Shown here one piece after another: positions 1-27,479 of a stretch of DNA of 64,000 nt. Position 1 is the stretch's first letter, and the number at the start of each line of letters is the position of its first letter. A program made the translations under genes and the position numbers. The notes beneath the pieces are model-generated. The model did no database searches and was not told where the DNA came from. It worked only from the letters and a program-made list of their open reading frames with translations. Location of the stretch: the NCBI RefSeq assembly GCF_044324875.1, contig NZ_CP172185.1. One strand, given 5' to 3'. The DNA is from Escherichia coli. GTDB taxonomy: Bacteria; Pseudomonadota; Gammaproteobacteria; Enterobacterales; Enterobacteriaceae.

Positions 1-176
1 GCACGTTCCATGAAAATCCTTTGCAAAGCGTAATGTTTCAAATGCACAAAACTTTTATACTCTAAGAAATCAGGATTGCACCAGTACAAGCAGCCTGATG
101 TTTGACGAGTATTTAACTTGTTATGAATAACATAGAATAGCAGCCATTCACTTTTTCTACGAATCAGGAACCCTCC

Positions 177-1457
177 ATGAGTAAGTCTGAAAATCTTTAC
201 AGCGCAGCGCGCGAGCTGATCCCTGGCGGTGTGAACTCCCCTGTTCGCGCCTTTACTGGCGTGGGCGGCACTCCACTGTTTATCGAAAAAGCGGACGGCG
301 CTTATCTGTACGATGTTGATGGCAAAGCCTATATCGATTATGTCGGTTCCTGGGGGCCGATGGTGCTGGGCCATAACCATCCGGCGATCCGCAATGCCGT
401 GATTGAAGCCGCCGAGCGTGGTTTAAGCTTTGGTGCACCAACCGAAATGGAAGTGAAAATGGCGCAACTGGTGACCGAACTGGTCCCGACCATGGATATG
501 GTGCGCATGGTGAACTCCGGCACTGAAGCGACAATGAGCGCCATCCGCCTGGCCCGTGGTTTTACCGGTCGCGACAAAATTATTAAATTTGAAGGTTGTT
601 ACCACGGTCACGCTGACTGCCTGCTGGTGAAAGCCGGTTCTGGCGCACTCACGTTAGGCCAGCCAAATTCGCCGGGCGTTCCGGCAGATTTCGCCAAACA
701 TACCTTAACCTGTACTTATAACGATCTGGCCTCTGTACGCGCCGCGTTTGAGCAATACCCGCAAGAGATTGCCTGTATTATCGTCGAGCCGGTGGCAGGC
801 AATATGAACTGCGTTCCACCGCTGCCAGAGTTCCTGCCAGGTCTGCGCGCGCTGTGCGACGAATTTGGCGCGTTGCTGATCATCGATGAAGTGATGACCG
901 GTTTCCGCGTAGCGCTAGCTGGCGCGCAGGATTATTACGGTGTGGAACCGGATCTCACCTGCCTGGGTAAAATCATCGGCGGCGGAATGCCGGTAGGCGC
1001 ATTCGGTGGTCGTCGTGATGTGATGGATGCGCTGGCCCCAACTGGTCCGGTGTACCAGGCGGGTACGCTTTCCGGTAACCCGATTGCGATGGCAGCCGGT
1101 TTCGCCTGTCTGAATGAAGTCGCACAGCCGGGCGTTCACGAAACGCTGGATGAGCTGACAACACGTCTGGCAGAAGGTCTGCGGGAAGCGGCAGAAGAAG
1201 CCGGAATTCCGCTGGTCGTTAACCACGTTGGCGGCATGTTCGGTATTTTCTTTACCGACGCCGGGTCCGTGACGTGCTATCAGGATGTGATGGCCTGTGA
1301 CGTGGAACGCTTTAAGCGTTTCTTCCATATGATGCTGGATGAAGGTGTTTACCTGGCACCGTCAGCGTTTGAAGCGGGCTTTATGTCCGTGGCGCACAGC
1401 ATGGAAGATATCAATAACACCATCGATGCTGCACGTCGGGTGTTTGCGAAGTTGTGA
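177..1457 (+). CDS. hemL: glutamate-1-semialdehyde 2,1-aminomutase
   Basis: 426-aa ORF; N-terminus [26 protein letters not shown] and overall sequence match my recollection of E. coli HemL (class III PLP aminotransferase). Confidence 0.95.
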
Positions 1458-1464
1458 TGATTTT

Positions 1465-1485
1465 GCCTCGCCCACCGGGCGAGGC
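1465..1485. terminator. GC-rich hairpin between convergent hemL and fhuB
   Basis: gcctcgcc / ggcgaggc inverted repeat with 5-nt loop, 8 nt after the hemL stop; no clean U-run. Confidence 0.45.
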
Positions 1486-1491
1486 ATTCAA

Positions 1492-3474
1492 TTAACGGCT
1501 CTGCTTTCTCAACAAATAGATAAAATATGGCGCGCCGATAAAGGTCGACAGCAGCCCCGCTGGGATCTGGAATGGAAACAGCACCATCCGCCCACACCAG
1601 TCAGCGAACACCAGCAGTAATCCTCCCACCAGCGCCGAAATTACGATGTGTGGCATCGTCCGTCGAAAGCCCATCATCCGCGCAATATGCGGTGCCATTA
1701 AACCAACAAAACTCAACGGTCCAATGGTCATTGTCGCAGTCGCTGTCAGGCAAGCCGCTAACAGCAGCAGCGCAATTCGCGTCGGCGTCAGCGCCATCCC
1801 CACGGCTCGTGCGGTATCACCACCCAGCGGTAAAATGGTCAGCCAGCGGCGGCACAGCGGGGTAATCGCCAGCAAAATCACCATCACAATTCCGGTACGC
1901 CAGACCTGCGCATCGGTCGCGTTGTAGGTCGAACCGGAAATCCAGGTCAGAACTTGCGCCATTCGCGGGTCACCACTTGCCTGCAACATCATCAAAAGCA
2001 TGGTGAACGCGGTACTTAACGCCATCCCCGCCAGTAACATGCGGTGTGGGGAAAATCCACCGCGTCCGGCGGCGATCATAATGATCAACAGCGTCACCGC
2101 CGCGCCGAGACTGCCTGCAGGTAACAGCCAGCCAAAGGCATTACCCGGCACCAGAAACAGCATCAACACCACGCCAAACGCCGCGCCGGAGCTAATCCCC
2201 AGCACTTCCGGGCTTGCCATCGGGTTTCCGGTCAGCCGCTGAATAATACAGCCCGCCACCGCCAACATGACGCCCGCAAACAGCGCCGCCATAATTCGCG
2301 GCCAGCGCCAGGGCATTAAATCCTCGAGCAACGCCCCGCTCGCCCACGTCCAGCCGTGCGCATCACGACCAAACGACAGCGCCACTACCACAGCCATCAA
2401 CAGCAGCACGCCGCCCGCGAGGGCAAACGCCAGCACATGTTGGCGTTCAGCCGCGACACGATCGTTGACCTTCATATCCGGCGCGCTAATGCTGCGTAAA
2501 CGCGGCAGCAGCCACAGTAGCAGCGGCGCACCGATCAACGCAGTGACCGAACCGGTGGAAACTTCCATCCACACGCGAGTCAGCCAGAGGATGATTTGAT
2601 CAGAAAGCCACAGAATTAACGCACCAATCAGCGACGCCAGCATCAACCGTGGCAACAAACGCCGCGCCCCCAGCATTTTTGCCAGCAGTGGCGCGAACAA
2701 CCCGATAAAGCCGATAATCCCCACTGCGTTCACCAGCAGCGCACTGATGACTATCGCCAGCGACAGCGCCGCCAGACGCGCGAGCGACAAGGCCAGCCCG
2801 AGGTTGCGCGCCACGCCATCATCAAGCCCCATCAGGGTTAACGGACGAAGTAGCAGTAACGTCAGCATCACGCCGCCCAGCAGCTGCGGCCATAAACGCT
2901 CAACGCCGCCCCAGTCGGTTTGCGTCAGCGTTCCGGTGCTCCAGAGGAACATGCTTTGTAGCTGGTCGTGATGGAAGATAACCAGTAACTGATTGATTGC
3001 CCCGCAATAAAGGCTCACCACCAGCCCCGCGAGGATCAGCGTTACCGGCGAAAGCCGTTTCCCCCACGCGACGCCAAAGACGATTAAGCCAACCACACAA
3101 GCCCCTGCCAGCGCAGCAAACTGGCTCGCCATAGCACCTGGGATCGCCCAGAGCGTGGTGACGGTAATCCCCAGTTGCGCGCCTGTAGCAACGCCCAGCG
3201 TCGTCGGTTCCGCCAGCGGGTTACGCAGCACTTGCTGAAACAGCACGCCCACCAGCCCCAGGCCCGCGCCCACCAGCAGCGAAATCGCCAGACGCGGCAA
3301 CAAGCTGTAGTGAAAAATCATCTGCTCGATGACGTCAATATCCGGCGACCAGGCGGCCTGCGCCCACTGGCTGCGCGGCAGCGCTTGCGAAAAGTTCATC
3401 CAGGTGAGCGCCGCTGCGACAATCACCAGCAGCGCCAGCAATAACGCCGGGAAAAGCGCAATTCGTTTACTCAC
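1492..3474 (-). CDS. fhuB: ferric hydroxamate ABC transporter permease
   Basis: 660-aa polytopic membrane ORF with duplicated permease halves; 4-bp overlap with fhuD; synteny fhuACDB. Confidence 0.95.
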   Translation of the reverse strand: MSKRIALFPALLLALLVIVAAALTWMNFSQALPRSQWAQAAWSPDIDVIEQMIFHYSLLPRLAISLLVGAGLGLVGVLFQQVLRNPLAEPTTLGVATGAQLGITVTTLWAIPGAMASQFAALAGACVVGLIVFGVAWGKRLSPVTLILAGLVVSLYCGAINQLLVIFHHDQLQSMFLWSTGTLTQTDWGGVERLWPQLLGGVMLTLLLLRPLTLMGLDDGVARNLGLALSLARLAALSLAIVISALLVNAVGIIGFIGLFAPLLAKMLGARRLLPRLMLASLIGALILWLSDQIILWLTRVWMEVSTGSVTALIGAPLLLWLLPRLRSISAPDMKVNDRVAAERQHVLAFALAGGVLLLMAVVVALSFGRDAHGWTWASGALLEDLMPWRWPRIMAALFAGVMLAVAGCIIQRLTGNPMASPEVLGISSGAAFGVVLMLFLVPGNAFGWLLPAGSLGAAVTLLIIMIAAGRGGFSPHRMLLAGMALSTAFTMLLMMLQASGDPRMAQVLTWISGSTYNATDAQVWRTGIVMVILLAITPLCRRWLTILPLGGDTARAVGMALTPTRIALLLLAACLTATATMTIGPLSFVGLMAPHIARMMGFRRTMPHIVISALVGGLLLVFADWCGRMVLFPFQIPAGLLSTFIGAPYFIYLLRKQSR

Positions 3475-4364
3475 GCTTTACCTCCGATGGCGTTATCCAG
3501 AATACGCACAAAGTGCATTGCCGAAAGCGTCGCACCATAAAACCAGACTGCGGATACGCGCTGAAAGCGTCCGGCGCGGACAAACGGCATAGCCTGCCAC
3601 AGCGGCGTCGCCATTAGGGTGTCCATGTCTTTGCTGTTGTCGTGATCAAAACAGAGCACATCAACGTCTTTATACGCTGCCAGACGATCGATACTGACGG
3701 CGGTACTGCCCCAGAAGTTGGTTTCCCCTTGCCAGGCATTTGGGATGCCGTACTCATCAAGAATTTCCTGGAACAAGCTGTTTGGACCGAAGACCAGCAT
3801 ATGGCGCGGATCGATAAGTGTCGTCAGTAATAACGGACGCGCACCACGCTTCACAAAGCGGGGTTTCATGCTGCGGATAAAGTCTTCATAGTGCGCTAAA
3901 TGCGTTTCTGCTGCGCTTTGCAGGTTAAGTAAATCTGCCATTTCCGTCAGTGATTTACGCGCCATCGCCAGCGGCTGTTTGCCGTCGCTGAAGTTAAATC
4001 CGCGCCCCGGCGCAATACGTGCCAGCATTTCTGGTGAAGGGCCATATCCTGCCGACCAGACCATAAACGACGGTTTCATTTCGGTCAGCAGTTCAAGGTT
4101 AGGTTCTGTACGCAAACCAACGTCAATCACTGAGTCCGGCAATGGTGGTTCGCTGACCCACAGGCGATAGTTGATGGTGTCCGCCACGCCGTAAGGCACG
4201 ATGCCGAGCGCCAGCAGTAATTCCACCGGCAACCACTCCAGCGCCACAATACGATTGGGATCAATAGCCGCCGCGTGGGCGGTATTCATCTGCCATAACA
4301 ACGGAGAAAGCGCCATCGCCGTTAACAGTCGGCGGCGCGAAATAAGAGGTAAGCCGCTCATCAA
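3471..4364 (-). CDS. fhuD: ferric hydroxamate periplasmic binding protein
   Basis: 297-aa ORF with Tat-like signal (SRRRLLTAMALSPLLW); overlaps fhuC and fhuB by 4 bp. Confidence 0.93.
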   Translation of the reverse strand: MMSGLPLISRRRLLTAMALSPLLWQMNTAHAAAIDPNRIVALEWLPVELLLALGIVPYGVADTINYRLWVSEPPLPDSVIDVGLRTEPNLELLTEMKPSFMVWSAGYGPSPEMLARIAPGRGFNFSDGKQPLAMARKSLTEMADLLNLQSAAETHLAHYEDFIRSMKPRFVKRGARPLLLTTLIDPRHMLVFGPNSLFQEILDEYGIPNAWQGETNFWGSTAVSIDRLAAYKDVDVLCFDHDNSKDMDTLMATPLWQAMPFVRAGRFQRVSAVWFYGATLSAMHFVRILDNAIGGKA

Positions 4365-5158
4365 TAAACAAAACTCACAGGTGCAGCACCCGCCGGATGC
4401 GGCAGAATACCCATCGGGATGCCATAAATCATTTCGAGGGTTTCGCCGCGCATAATTTCCGCAGGCGTTCCCTGAGCAATCATTTCACCACCGCGCAGGG
4501 CGACCAGATAATCACAGTAGCGCGCCGCCATATTGATATCGTGCAACACGGCAATGACCGTCAGGCCACGCTCCTGACTTAAACGGTGCACCAGCGCCAG
4601 CACATCAACCTGGTGGGCGATATCCAGCGCCGAGGTCGGTTCGTCGAGCAACAGACAACGGCTATCCTGCGCCACCAGCATGGCGATCCACGCCCGCTGA
4701 CGTTCGCCGCCAGAGAGACTATCAACCAGCCGATGCGCCAGCGGTTTTAAGCCAACCAGCGAGATAGCTTCCTCGACTTTTTCGCGATCTGCCGCCCCAA
4801 AGCGCCCCAGCGCGCCATGCCACGGGTAACGACCAATCGCCACCAGTTCACGCACGGTCATCCCTTCTGCCGGAGGAAGCTGCTGCGGTAAATAAGCCAC
4901 TTTGCGGGCAAACGCTTTGCTGCTCCAGCTTTCCAGCGGCTGGGCATCAAGAAGAATTTCGCCTTCCGACGGTGGCTGATGACGGCCAAGCATTTTGAGC
5001 AGAGTGGATTTACCAGAACCGTTGTGACCAATCAGACCAGTCACTTTCCCGGCAGGAAAGGTTAACGACAGCGGATGCAAAAGCGTGCGCCCTGGCACAC
5101 GAAAGGAGATATTACGCAGTGCAAAAGTGGTATCGGAATGATTCGTGTATTCCTGCAT
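4361..5158 (-). CDS. fhuC: ferric hydroxamate ABC transporter ATPase
   Basis: Walker A GHNGSGKST and signature LSGGERQR; start placed at internal MQEYTNHSD (265 aa), not the ORF-track 5281 extension. Confidence 0.93.
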   Translation of the reverse strand: MQEYTNHSDTTFALRNISFRVPGRTLLHPLSLTFPAGKVTGLIGHNGSGKSTLLKMLGRHQPPSEGEILLDAQPLESWSSKAFARKVAYLPQQLPPAEGMTVRELVAIGRYPWHGALGRFGAADREKVEEAISLVGLKPLAHRLVDSLSGGERQRAWIAMLVAQDSRCLLLDEPTSALDIAHQVDVLALVHRLSQERGLTVIAVLHDINMAARYCDYLVALRGGEMIAQGTPAEIMRGETLEMIYGIPMGILPHPAGAAPVSFVY

Positions 5159-5208
5159 AACAGCCAACTTGTGAAGCGGGCACGGAAATCCGTGCCCCAA
5201 AAGAGAAA

Positions 5209-7398
5209 TTAGAAGCGGAAGGTTGCGGTTGCAACGACCTGACGTTCTGCGCCCCAGAAGCAGCCATAGGTCTGGAAGCAACTGGCAACATACTCACGAT
5301 CGAGCAAATTGTTGACGTTCACAGCAAGGCTGGATCCCGCCATACCAAAGCGTGCCAGATCATATTTTACAACAGCATCCATTACAGCTGCGCTACCCAC
5401 TTTAAAAGTGTTTGCCGGATCACCATAGCTGGAACCAATAAAACGACCACCTGTTCCCAATGTTAAACCAGAAAGCGGCCCTTCATTGAAGGTATAATCC
5501 CCCCAGAGAGATGCCATATGCTCCGGTACTTGTTCTGGAGTTTTACCTTTGAGATTGGTGTCTTTGGTGTATTCCGCATCGGTGTAGGTATAAGAAGCCG
5601 TCAAGTTAATATTGGCATTTAACGCCGCTTTAGCTTCAAGTTCCACACCACGAGCGCGAATCTCACCTGCCGGGACTTGCGCTAATGGGTTTGTTGGGTC
5701 TGCTGTCAGGTTATTTGTTTTCGTCAATTGATAGACTGCGCCCGTAACAACGACCGGCATATCATTCGGAACATATTTTACGCCAGCTTCATACTGTTCA
5801 CCTTTCGATGGCTTATAGGAAACGCGCGGGTTGCTCCACAGATCGAAAGCACTCGGTTCAAAGGACTGGCTATAGCTAAAGTAAGGTGAAATACCATTAT
5901 CGAATAAGTAATTTACACCACCGCGCCAGGTGAACTGATGATCATTGCGCTCAATATAACCTTCAGTCGGCGTATAAGAGTTTTCACGAACAGTGGTCGC
6001 TTGCTTAGACCAATCGTAGCGTCCTCCCAGAGTGAATACCCATTTATTCCATTCCGCCTGATCCTGAACATAAATACCTGTTTGTTTGCTTTCATTCATC
6101 TGGTATGGCTCTGCGCTACCAAATGCAAAGTATTCAGGATGGTATTTGTTATAAAGATCGATGGATGGTGCAGATCCAAAGCTGGCATTGATATCATTGC
6201 GCATCCGCATGAAGTCTACCCCTGTCAGCAAAGTATGCCCGACGTCACCTGTAGCAAACTTACTTTCAAGTTGGGTATCAACGCTAAAGTTTTGTAGACG
6301 CTCATTATCCACCACTGTCCCGCGGTTTAGGGTATGACCATCGCTGGCAATCCCTGTGCCATAAACACTTTTCTGTGAGGTTTTCATTTCACTGAAACGC
6401 AGATTCTGACGCACGGTGAAGGTGTCATTAAAACCATGTTCAAAACTATATCCCACCATTTTCTGGTTACGGGAGTATGTATTATTCGATGCACCTTCAT
6501 TGAAATCAGTCGGTAGACGCTTACCATTAGGCAATGGCTCAACGGTCCCCTCTTTCGGCAACCAACCGTAATAACCCGTTTCTGGTTCGTTCTGAAAATA
6601 GGACAGGAAAGTAAAATTGGTTTTGTCGTCTGGACGCCATGAGAATGATGGAGCAATGGTATAACGCTGAGATTCAGAGTTTTTCTGCTGTTCGTTTGTT
6701 GAGCGTGCGAGGCCAGTCAAACGGTAGGAGAACTCACCGTTATCATCCAGCGCATCACTGAAATCGAATCCGGTCTGAAACAGATTATCCGTCCCCATTT
6801 TAAACTGAATTTCTTTCAGGGGTTCAGTTGTCGGACGCTTACTCACCATAGAAATAATCCCACCAGGATTACTTTTCCCATAGAGAACAGACGTCGGCCC
6901 GCGCATCAGTTCAACCCTCTCGAGCATGTAAGGATCAATCACAGCATCGTTATAAAAGTTGCCCTGAAGTTTTAGTCCATCAAGGTAATTATTTTGATTC
7001 AGACCAACAGATGAGAAACCACGAATAATAACAAAATCATATGTATTAGAAGCACCACGACTGCTAACCGTAACGCCAGGTGTATAACCTAATGCTTCTT
7101 TTACAGACTGAAATTGATGCATCTGCATCTCTTCATTTGTCACAACCGAAATAGACTGCGGCGTTTTTTCAATTGGTGTATCCGTTTTAGTCGCAGTAGC
7201 AGAGTGCTTCGCCGCAATAGTTGCAGCTGGCCCCCATGCGCTTTCTTGCGGCGCAGGTGCAGCGGTAACGGTGATAGTGTCTTCTTTCGGTTCAACCGCT
7301 GCCTGTGCATAAACAGACATGCCGCTAACCGCTGTGGCTACTACAACTGCGATTTTACGCAGTGAGTGTTTTGGCTGAGCAGTTTTGGAACGCGCCAT
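5209..7398 (-). CDS. fhuA: TonB-dependent ferrichrome outer-membrane receptor / phage receptor
   Basis: 729-aa ORF; signal peptide MARSKTAQPKHSLRKIAVVVATAVSGMSVYAQA, TonB box DTITV, C-terminal ATATFRF; Fur box upstream. Confidence 0.92.
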   Translation of the reverse strand: MARSKTAQPKHSLRKIAVVVATAVSGMSVYAQAAVEPKEDTITVTAAPAPQESAWGPAATIAAKHSATATKTDTPIEKTPQSISVVTNEEMQMHQFQSVKEALGYTPGVTVSSRGASNTYDFVIIRGFSSVGLNQNNYLDGLKLQGNFYNDAVIDPYMLERVELMRGPTSVLYGKSNPGGIISMVSKRPTTEPLKEIQFKMGTDNLFQTGFDFSDALDDNGEFSYRLTGLARSTNEQQKNSESQRYTIAPSFSWRPDDKTNFTFLSYFQNEPETGYYGWLPKEGTVEPLPNGKRLPTDFNEGASNNTYSRNQKMVGYSFEHGFNDTFTVRQNLRFSEMKTSQKSVYGTGIASDGHTLNRGTVVDNERLQNFSVDTQLESKFATGDVGHTLLTGVDFMRMRNDINASFGSAPSIDLYNKYHPEYFAFGSAEPYQMNESKQTGIYVQDQAEWNKWVFTLGGRYDWSKQATTVRENSYTPTEGYIERNDHQFTWRGGVNYLFDNGISPYFSYSQSFEPSAFDLWSNPRVSYKPSKGEQYEAGVKYVPNDMPVVVTGAVYQLTKTNNLTADPTNPLAQVPAGEIRARGVELEAKAALNANINLTASYTYTDAEYTKDTNLKGKTPEQVPEHMASLWGDYTFNEGPLSGLTLGTGGRFIGSSYGDPANTFKVGSAAVMDAVVKYDLARFGMAGSSLAVNVNNLLDREYVASCFQTYGCFWGAERQVVATATFRF

Positions 7399-25317: not shown

Positions 25318-26169
25318 GTGTTAATTATCGAAACCCTGCCGCTGCTGCGTCAGCAAATCCGCCGCCTGCGTATGGAAGGTAAGCGCGTGGCGCTGGTGCC
25401 CACCATGGGTAACCTGCACGACGGCCATATGAAGCTGGTCGACGAAGCCAAAGCCCGCGCCGATGTGGTCGTCGTCAGTATTTTCGTTAACCCGATGCAG
25501 TTCGACCGCCCGGAAGATCTGGCACGTTATCCACGGACCTTGCAAGAGGACTGCGAAAAGCTGAACAAGCGCAAAGTGGATTTAGTTTTCGCCCCTTCGG
25601 TAAAAGAGATCTACCCGAACGGTACAGAAACCCACACCTATGTTGATGTTCCCGGTCTTTCTACCATGCTGGAAGGTGCCAGCCGTCCGGGACATTTTCG
25701 CGGCGTTTCGACTATCGTCAGCAAGCTGTTCAATCTGGTCCAGCCGGACATCGCCTGCTTCGGTGAAAAAGATTTTCAGCAACTGGCGCTGATCCGCAAA
25801 ATGGTTGCTGATATGGGCTTTGATATTGAGATTGTCGGTGTGCCAATTATGCGCGCCAAAGACGGTCTGGCGCTGAGTTCCCGTAACGGTTATCTGACGG
25901 CGGAACAACGCAAAATTGCGCCTGGTCTGTACAAGGTTTTAAGTTCGATTGCCGACAAATTGCAGGCTGGCGAACGGGATCTCGATGAAATTATTACTAT
26001 TGCCGGGCAAGAACTGAATGAAAAAGGCTTCCGCGCCGATGATATTCAGATTCGTGATGCCGACACCTTGCTGGAGGTCTCTGAAAACAGCAAACGTGCA
26101 GTGATTCTGGTAGCCGCCTGGCTTGGCGATGCCCGCCTGATCGACAACAAAATAGTCGAGCTGGTGTAA
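25318..26169 (+). CDS. panC: pantothenate synthetase
   Basis: 283 aa, GTG start, [37 protein letters not shown] (HIGH-type motif). Confidence 0.95.
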
Positions 26170-26250
26170 TATTTAACTGGCGCTACGGCTGATGGCGCCA
26201 GTTATTCATTGCCACGTCATCTGTAAGAAATTATTCATATCGTAGACAAC

Positions 26251-26466
26251 TTAGTTAGAGTTAATTAGCTTATCAACCTCTGTAAGAGATAAAGTTGCCA
26301 TCTCTGCAACGTCTTCCCGAGACATTCCTTTACTCAGAAGACGCTGGGCCAGCCTTACCTTCCGGAGTCCCTCTTTATATCCCTTCTGAAATCCCTTCTG
26401 AAATCCCTTCTCTTCAAACCACTGCGCCAACGTCTGCCTGGTTTCTCTCCGTGTCTTTATTTCCAT
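26251..26466 (-). CDS. stand-alone Rpn C-terminal-tail paralog (RpnS-like small protein)
   Basis: 71-aa ORF; LAQWFEE...QRLLSKGMSREDVAEMA...EVDKLI closely parallels the last 70 aa of the adjacent rpnC product; created by an 85-bp tandem duplication. Confidence 0.5.
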   Translation of the reverse strand: MEIKTRRETRQTLAQWFEEKGFQKGFQKGYKEGLRKVRLAQRLLSKGMSREDVAEMATLSLTEVDKLINSN

Positions 26467-26636
26467 ATATTCCCTTAATTATCTGGTCAGTTAACAATAA
26501 CAATTATCTGGCTATAACTGATAATGCAGATAACTTAGCTAATCAGCTTATCAACCTCAGCAAGGGGTAAATTTGCCATCTCTGCAACGTCTTCCCGAGA
26601 CATTCCTTTACTCAGAAGACGCTGGGCGAATTCCTG
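26265..26636. repeat. tandem duplication of the rpnC 3' end (two ~85-bp near-identical copies, period ~280 bp)
   Basis: Copies at about 26265-26349 and 26544-26636 share the run ttgccatctctgcaacgtcttcccgagacattcctttactcagaagacgctgggc. Confidence 0.85.
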
Positions 26637-27479
26637 ACTTACTTCCTGTGTTACTTCCTGTATTACCTCTTGTCTTACCTCTTGTCTTACCTCTTGTCTT
26701 ACCTCCTGTCTTCCTTCCTGTCTTCCCCTCTCTTCAAACCACTGCGCCAGCGTCATCATAGACTTCCCTCCCGTTTCCCTGTCTCTCAGCACACCATAAA
26801 ACAAATCCGCTTGTTCAGTATGACCGCGTTGCAGCATATAGTTTTGCATGGCAACTAACTGACTTCCGCTAGTGTACCCTTCGTCAATCAGCGTGACCAG
26901 TTGCTCCAGCAATAACATTAAGTCGCGCTGGCGAATATGTTTTTGCAGTAGTTCGAGAATCGCAATCCGCCGATGTTGCATGATTTCGTCATCCGGTGTG
27001 ATGGTGATATCCACCAGCGGGAAAGGGTTGTTGTAAACGCGTCGCGCCAGCTCCGGCGAGTAAAACATATCAAACCAACACATTGAGAGCGGATAAGGTG
27101 TGGCCTCGCCCTGATAAAACAGAATCGGCACCACCAGCGGCAGCTTATCGTGATCCGCCTCCAGATGCCGGTGCATGGCAGCAATAGAATAACGCATCAT
27201 GCGAAAGGCCATTTTCTTATCCGGCTTACTTTGGTGTTCAATCACCACATGCAAATAACCGGGATTACCCTGCATTTGTACGGAATAGAGTACGTCCGTG
27301 CTGTGCCCTTTCAGGCTTTCCTCAATAAAACTCCCCGACTCAAGATGCAGCGTGTCGAGGTCACACAGTTCGCGTAGCTCCGCTGGCAAATGGATATCCA
27401 GAAAGTCACGAGCCGTTTCCGCATGCATTAAAAATTGTTTAAATACCGCGTCATGCGGTGTGGTACTCGGTGCATCCAT
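26535..27479 (-). CDS. rpnC: recombination-promoting nuclease Rpn family (YhgA-like PD-(D/E)xK)
   Basis: 314-aa ORF at the K-12 yadD position between panC and panD; Rpn-family sequence with C-terminal repeat-containing tail. Confidence 0.8.
   Translation of the reverse strand: MDAPSTTPHDAVFKQFLMHAETARDFLDIHLPAELRELCDLDTLHLESGSFIEESLKGHSTDVLYSVQMQGNPGYLHVVIEHQSKPDKKMAFRMMRYSIAAMHRHLEADHDKLPLVVPILFYQGEATPYPLSMCWFDMFYSPELARRVYNNPFPLVDITITPDDEIMQHRRIAILELLQKHIRQRDLMLLLEQLVTLIDEGYTSGSQLVAMQNYMLQRGHTEQADLFYGVLRDRETGGKSMMTLAQWFEERGRQEGRQEVRQEVRQEVRQEVIQEVTQEVSQEFAQRLLSKGMSREDVAEMANLPLAEVDKLIS
26637..26726 (-). repeat. in-frame 12-bp tandem repeat tract within rpnC (RQEV units)
   Basis: About 7 units of tacctcttgtct and variants, encoding RQEVRQEVRQEV...; a second shorter tract (atcccttctgaa, KGFQ units) lies at 26379-26412 in the small ORF. 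Confidence 0.85.

Follow-up and report, generated by a model that had tools for sequence, protein, structure and literature searches.

The window analysed here, a stretch of 64,000 nt of the Escherichia coli contig NZ_CP172185.1, carries a partial second copy of the 3' end of rpnC, a gene encoding a full-length Rpn family nuclease (RpnC-L). The copy constitutes a small separate gene, rpnCSs, which is placed between rpnC and the convergently oriented panC, on the same strand as rpnC and 68 nt past its stop codon (Table 1). The larger gene is annotated under the same name at syntenic E. coli loci, and the same rpnC-rpnCSs layout is present in 17 other loci of this species. The distance between rpnC and panC amounts to 365 bp (26170..26534), compared with 73 bp in the K-12 derivative RP437 (rpnC end at 147870, panC at 147944). 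The initial annotation had given very similar values (about 365 bp here and about 74 bp for K-12) and had proposed an alignment with K-12 as a check. In this alignment the RP437 locus, which was used for the comparison, contains no second tail copy, and the sequence flanking the end of rpnCSs corresponds to that found directly 3' of rpnC in K-12. The convergent gap that remains after panC and rpnCSs contains a G+C-rich hairpin, which is likely to be a shared terminator of both genes.

Table 1. Genes and sequence features of the panC-rpnC locus (positions refer to the whole window).
Feature	Position	Strand	Characteristics
panC	25318..26169	+	Convergent neighbour bounding the locus; ORF list and K-12 synteny
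G+C-rich hairpin	26174..26204	.	Convergent gap between panC and rpnCSs; fold z = -2.1
rpnCSs, stand-alone RpnC tail copy	26251..26466	-	71 aa, MEIKTRRETRQTLAQWFEEKGFQKGFQKGYKEGLRKVRLAQRLLSKGMSREDVAEMATLSLTEVDKLINSN
Repeat copy 2, rpnCSs 3' coding end	26259..26349	-	Repeat finder, family D1
rpnCSs repeat region	26353..26409	-	KGFQKGFQKGYKEGLRKVR, 19 aa
Spacer, rpnC stop to rpnCSs start	26467..26534	-	68 nt
rpnC (RpnC-L)	26535..27479	-	314 aa, full-length Rpn family PD-(D/E)xK nuclease
Repeat copy 1, rpnC 3' coding end	26537..26627	-	Repeat finder, family D1
rpnC hypervariable repeat region	26631..26729	-	12-nt (4-aa) repeats, RGRQEGRQEVRQEVRQEVRQEVIQEVTQEVSQE, 33 aa; repeat family D3
Putative internal RpnC-S frame	26535..26759	-	MMTLAQWFEE..., 74 aa; preceded by Shine-Dalgarno GGGAGGG; inferred start

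The small gene is already known. It is almost certainly rpnCSs, the extra copy of the small, antitoxin-type C-terminal protein of RpnC, which was described and named in 2023 by Zhong et al. (PNAS 120:e2307382120; PMC10400941, Fig. 2I and SI Fig. S3C) and is annotated in RefSeq: the 71-aa protein is identical to WP_000404121.1 ("RpnC/YadD family protein"). These authors demonstrated that RpnS tails neutralise the toxic PD-(D/E)xK RpnL nucleases, placed rpnCSs in one cluster with RpnC-S (and not with the analogous RpnESs, encoded by ypaA), and described the loss of rpnCSs by deletion or fusion (PMC10400941). The same study bears out two proposals made in the initial annotation, namely that a stand-alone Rpn-tail gene has arisen by duplication of the 3' part of rpnC, and that Rpn proteins are toxic PD-(D/E)xK nucleases whose small RpnS tails act as antitoxins. 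A literature search covering 2023 onward revealed no later work on rpnCSs; the L/Ss repeat-length comparison presented below adds to the main text of PMC10400941. The names assigned to rpnCSs by PGAP are inconsistent ('hypothetical protein', 'RpnC/YadD family protein', 'transposase', and pseudogene 'missing N-terminus'), and the "pseudogene" annotations reflect merely the "missing N-terminus" in relation to a full-length Rpn.

The two copies of the rpnC end form a direct repeat of 91 nt, which is ungapped and 92% identical, with a start-to-start distance of 278 nt. A repeat of this length and identity within 3 kb is far beyond chance. The 3' end of rpnC therefore occurs twice, about 280 bp apart, as had been noticed from the sequence, and it is only the reported length of the repeat (85 bp) that has to be corrected. 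A weaker continuation of the repeat (72% identity) links positions 26354-26434 and 26674-26754. When the differing repeat lengths were allowed for in an alignment of the rpnC tail, rpnCSs and the K-12 tail (all in sense orientation), homology of the two copies was found to begin at the TLAQWFEE codons and to end about 19 nt beyond the stop codon (TAAGTTATCTGCATTATCA versus TAAGTTGTCTACGATATGA). Within the last 30 codons the DNA of rpnCSs is about 89-91% identical to that of the resident rpnC tail, and the TLAQWFEE and KGMSREDVAE blocks are common to both proteins. The repeat units, by contrast, are unlike in the two tail copies, being of the KGFQ type in one and of the RQEV type in the other.

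The separate 71-aa ORF with its own start, predicted to reproduce the rpnC tail, was found intact on the minus strand. The term tandem duplication, used in the initial annotation, holds for it insofar as rpnCSs copies part of the 3' end of rpnC, but the duplication is not cleanly tandem. The ATGATG of the putative internal RpnC-S frame (MMTLAQ, 26759) is missing from rpnCSs, which starts at a new ATG (26466) situated 12 codons 5' of TLAQWFEE (MEIKTRRETRQ), and the copy is further distinguished by an AT-rich spacer and by other repeat units. The opposite strand of this region contains two ORFs, at 26295-26570 (+) and 26573-26761 (+), coding for 91 and 62 aa, respectively, and both starting with MPSLQRLPETFLYSEDAG. 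They were rejected as genes, being mirror images of the duplicated tail and by-products of the repeats.

Homology to the flank that follows the second copy covers the first 16 or so nucleotides of the spacer (about 19 with the stop codon). The other part of the spacer (about 50 nt, AT-rich) could not be matched convincingly to rpnC or to any other part of the window; aligned with rpnC, the junction gave a score of 14, compared with a mean of 10.4 (sd 1.4, maximum 16) for shuffled sequences. The ATG of rpnCSs is preceded, at a distance of 4 nt, by a Shine-Dalgarno-like sequence, AAGGGA (26471-26476), which is conserved across the loci. A terminator scan detected no terminator between the rpnC stop codon and the rpnCSs ATG, and the predicted RNA fold of the spacer is no more stable than the folds of shuffled sequences. 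The sole terminator-like match on the minus strand is located inside the rpnCSs ORF, has 5 stem pairs and is within chance expectation. A promoter scan found no minus-strand sigma-70 consensus upstream of rpnCSs. Since no terminator or stable structure separates the two genes and the smaller one has no sigma-70 consensus of its own, read-through transcription is the simplest expectation, and rpnCSs is probably transcribed from the rpnC promoter and from internal rpnCS promoters. In the case of the K-12 rpn genes, internal starts have been shown experimentally (PMC10400941). The K-12 rpnC-panC pair is listed among the convergent excludons, whose transcripts overlap (PMC12288877); in the window rpnCSs fills the convergent gap, and its mRNA may overlap the 3' end of panC.

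The family assignment of the two proteins reflects their relationship. RpnC matches the NCBIfam model TIGR01784 over the whole protein (3e-83, 279.8 bits), and RpnCSs matches positions 213-273 of 273, i.e. the last 61, with an E value of 2.7e-10. The score of the latter (40.5 bits) is below the whole-protein cutoff of the model (52.1) because RpnCSs consists of the tail alone, short of a full-length nuclease domain. A Pfam scan of the 71-aa protein gave nothing significant (best E values of 0.02-0.2, for Yae1_N and HTH_3), and DUF4351 (PF14261), the model for separate RpnS genes in some species, does not match rpnCSs. No family of PADLOC-DB 2.0 matches rpnC or rpnCSs; Rpn is not represented in that release.

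An AlphaFold (AF2) model of RpnCSs, for which an alignment of 18 tail variants (A1) was the input, shows three helices, a long first one (residues 6-45) and two short ones (residues 50-56 and 61-70), with a mean pLDDT of 71. At this moderate level of confidence, the predicted fold would be in line with the published description of the RpnA-S crystal structure, which comprises three helices, the long first one being the dimer interface. A Foldseek comparison of the model with the PDB gave no significant match, only weak HTH-like ones (best E value 0.28), and did not return RpnA-S. A search of the PDB by sequence produced a designed 'CAP repeat' protein alone, which resembles the HTH-like last two helices and is uninformative. 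The repeats of RpnCSs begin at residue 20, at a distance of 19 residues from the Met, which is within the published range of 8-20 residues.

A query spanning the rpnC-rpnCSs junction (26425-26545) was matched in 1555 of 5426 complete E. coli genomes (approximately 29%), in all cases on the chromosome, with identity of at least 95% in 1552 genomes; a wider query was matched in 1547 genomes at coverage of at least 80%. The carriers include UPEC 536 and ATCC 25922, and the gene is missing from about 71% of the complete genomes, K-12 included. rpnCSs is, in short, a published, named and common polymorphism. The 1555 genomes contain 1558 places matched by the junction query, up to 3 per genome, so that a few strains have more than one rpnC-rpnCSs junction; these are possibly arrays of tail copies.

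More detailed comparisons were made for 18 two-copy loci (the window and 17 others, which are phylogenetically non-independent) and four single-copy loci. Across the spacer and the first 60 nt of the ORF, 17 of the 18 two-copy loci are nearly identical, the variation being limited to one synonymous change and to positions -3 and -2; within the 12 new N-terminal codons there is one variant site among the loci, and it is synonymous. This near-invariance of the junction and of the start of the ORF fits a single origin of the duplication. Most likely, the 3' end of rpnC was partially duplicated a single time within E. coli, and the copy then diverged: its internal start was lost, the new ATG with its AAGGGA sequence would be used instead, and the helix composed of 4-aa repeats evolved separately. 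The exact 27-nt pattern of the N-terminal part, used to scan one genome per species (GTDB representatives), was found in a mis-binned E. coli contig alone, a result that concerns exact matches and says nothing on diverged copies in other Escherichia. The contig in question (CALXDF010000219.1; L022, positions 1-4337) comes from a MAG named 'uncultured Oscillospiraceae bacterium' and is ordinary E. coli panB-panC-rpnCSs-rpnC DNA. Its rpnCSs allele is the same as in strains 2547 and SK1144, and it is evidently a mis-binned contaminant.

None of the 18 two-copy loci has a disrupted rpnCSs ORF, and the ORF is likewise intact in the contig mentioned above (L022). The 18 loci encode 12 distinct proteins of 56-73 aa, and neither stop codons nor frameshifts were found in them despite the changes in repeat length. 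The repeat region of rpnC comprises 9-37 aa and its length is always 4n+1, whereas that of rpnCSs comprises 9-21 aa and is in some cases 4n+3 owing to a 2-aa deletion. In each of the 18 loci the two repeat regions carried by the same genome are unequal in length (L/Ss pairs of 33/19, 37/19, 29/15, 29/17, 33/13, 25/19, 25/15, 21/13, 37/13, 9/21, 9/17, 29/19 and 25/9), although, given the large number of length classes, chance alone would produce some unequal pairs. In the window, the repeat region of rpnCSs falls short of that of the resident rpnC by 14 aa and has left the 4n+1 series by a 2-aa deletion (KVR-LAQR versus KVRQEFAQR). The rpnC tails themselves fall into two repeat families, KGIE (K-12, ATCC 25922) and RQEV (the window, UPEC 536).

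The significance of these differences follows from a published experiment, in which neutralisation was abolished when either RpnC-S or RpnC-LS received one more KGIE repeat, unless both carried it; this rule rests on one added repeat in the K-12 RpnC, i.e. on another allele pair. A cognate RpnS would have the same number of repeats as its toxin, and RpnCSs has a repeat region of 19 aa compared with 33 aa in the resident protein. Because of this mismatch and of the one-repeat rule, RpnCSs is expected to be a poor inhibitor of the resident nuclease, and it is probably not a cognate extra antitoxin for RpnC. The unequal repeats lower the claim that RpnCSs is a cognate antitoxin; its status as an RpnS homologue is unaffected. 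The initial suggestion that an extra tail gene could change the balance between toxin and antitoxin is weakened accordingly, as the repeat region is 14 aa shorter and a mismatch of a single repeat suffices to abolish neutralisation.

The single-copy loci provide a record of exchange between the two tails. In two of them (L011 and L013) rpnC ends in the Ss-type ATLSLTEVDKLINSN, and in a third, that of APEC O1 (L012), the rpnC tail block is base-for-base the same as the Ss block of two two-copy loci (L009 and L021). The 3' flank of rpnC in K-12, equal to the one behind the Ss copy, belongs to the same set of observations. It follows from these fused rpnC tails that the two copies recombine. A crossover of this kind would delete rpnCSs and move its end, or the whole tail, onto rpnC. 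Homogenisation of the two copies within a genome was not seen: the identity of L and Ss is 0.879 in the same genome and 0.882 in comparisons across genomes.

Judging from the sequence data, it is fairly probable that RpnCSs is an expressed but non-cognate tail paralogue, which serves mainly as a recombination partner reshuffling the tail of rpnC. RpnCSs would be translated into a small three-helix protein, dimerising through its long first helix. Compared with the helix of the resident RpnC-L and RpnC-S, this one would lack 14 residues, and it would be 2 residues off the 4n+1 series of the sampled L tails; given this difference in length, RpnCSs most likely binds and neutralises the resident nuclease poorly. 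Crossing over between the tail copies would remove the small gene and provide rpnC with a new tail, and rpnCSs would in this way behave as a stored alternative specificity module.

Another explanation, which we consider improbable, is that RpnCSs provides an extra dose of cognate antitoxin: it would bind RpnC-L, add to RpnC-S and retune RpnC activity, with the level of antitoxin uncoupled from expression of the toxin and the activity of RpnC damped. The tail is clearly homologous to that of RpnC, as judged from the DNA identity of the last 30 codons and from the two conserved blocks present in both tails, and RpnS proteins do neutralise RpnL. Moreover, a commentary on the original study took a view similar to that of the initial annotation: with two RpnS copies, antitoxin and toxin would be decoupled, 'enhancing the flexibility of regulation' (PMC10400984). 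However, the repeat lengths differ in 18 of 18 loci, the difference of 14 aa found here is not a multiple of 4, and a single added 4-aa repeat abolished neutralisation both ways. The practically equal L-Ss identities within and across genomes also argue against this explanation, as they reveal no tendency to keep L and Ss alike in one genome.

Somewhat less improbable, though still unlikely, is that rpnCSs is an inert remnant of a duplication or of an allele replacement, which persists because it is young and short. The pN/pS ratio of the rpnCSs tail (0.75) exceeds those of the rpnC tail (0.44) and of the nuclease domain (0.06), which is compatible with relaxed selection or with a decaying copy; over 30 codons this ratio cannot separate relaxed from diversifying selection. 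The pseudogene-fragment label given by PGAP in several genomes, the result of the sigma-70 consensus scan (no own promoter) and the absence of the gene from most of the genomes, including K-12, point in the same direction. On the other hand, all 18 ORFs are intact over 12 protein variants (mild evidence only, as the ORF is short), the start codon and the Shine-Dalgarno sequence are conserved, the gene has been kept in 1555 genomes, and the analogous YpaA is translated in K-12. There is hardly any chance that the second copy reflects fortuitous similarity or an assembly artefact duplicating the end of rpnC. Nothing but the repetitive nature of the region speaks for such an origin, which is excluded by the extent of the repeat (91 nt at 92%) and by the presence of the junction in 1555 independently assembled genomes; besides, the two copies are unlike each other in their repeat units and in their ends.

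The reading of rpnCSs as a non-cognate recombination partner can be extended, tentatively and with considerable doubt, to the proposal that RpnSs genes are kept non-cognate to the resident toxin, with the stored tail being swappable onto rpnC by homologous recombination, as in the fused loci L011, L012 and L013. This proposal draws on the unequal L and Ss repeats of all 18 rpnC loci and of the independent K-12 pair rpnE/ypaA. If this is true, the specificity of the toxin-antitoxin pair could be changed in one step, which would amount to a cassette-like diversification of an anti-phage system. Alternatively, RpnCSs could be a decoy for a phage factor that targets RpnS. A copy that is mismatched and recombining would in itself bear on how specificity changes in the Rpn anti-phage toxin-antitoxin systems.

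The element found in the window has no essential difference from the published rpnCSs: it has the same position 3' of rpnC, the same nature of an RpnC-S tail and the same variation of 4-aa repeats, and it likewise occurs in some E. coli strains only. Its closest counterpart is ypaA (rpnESs) of K-12, a stand-alone tail copy of the adjoining rpnE, placed on the same strand. The protein encoded by ypaA, which arose by a duplication independent of rpnCSs, was detected in K-12 by SPA tagging (PMC10400941). YpaA has one more 4-aa unit (KLEG) than the RpnE tail, and the repeat count of rpnCSs is also mismatched; the L/Ss mismatch was observed in the rpnE/ypaA region of RP437 as well (L023, positions 4268-5365). 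The two genes differ in their beginnings, since the beginning of ypaA coincides with the internal Shine-Dalgarno sequence and ATG and abuts the rpnE stop codon, whereas rpnCSs has lost the internal ATGATG and has acquired a new 12-codon N-terminus and a 68-nt spacer.

The intragenic antitoxins RpnA-S, RpnC-S and RpnP2-S share with rpnCSs the homologous tail and the hypervariable 4-aa repeats, as well as the arrangement of a long first helix and two short ones, which in RpnCSs is a prediction of the model. Unlike these proteins, which are produced from an internal start and are tied to their toxin, RpnCSs is encoded by a gene of its own; it is not bound to co-evolve with the toxin, and the length of its repeats is mismatched to that of the resident one. 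By analogy only, the arrangement is also reminiscent of the orphan CT/immunity cassettes of rhs and cdiA, in which the full gene is followed by a partial 3' copy of a variable module that has a conserved block of homology in common with it and recombines with it, swapping the variable end. The rhs and cdi families are unrelated to Rpn, and what is swapped there is a toxin tip together with an immunity gene, whereas in the case of rpnCSs the swapped part would be an antitoxin/oligomerisation tail.
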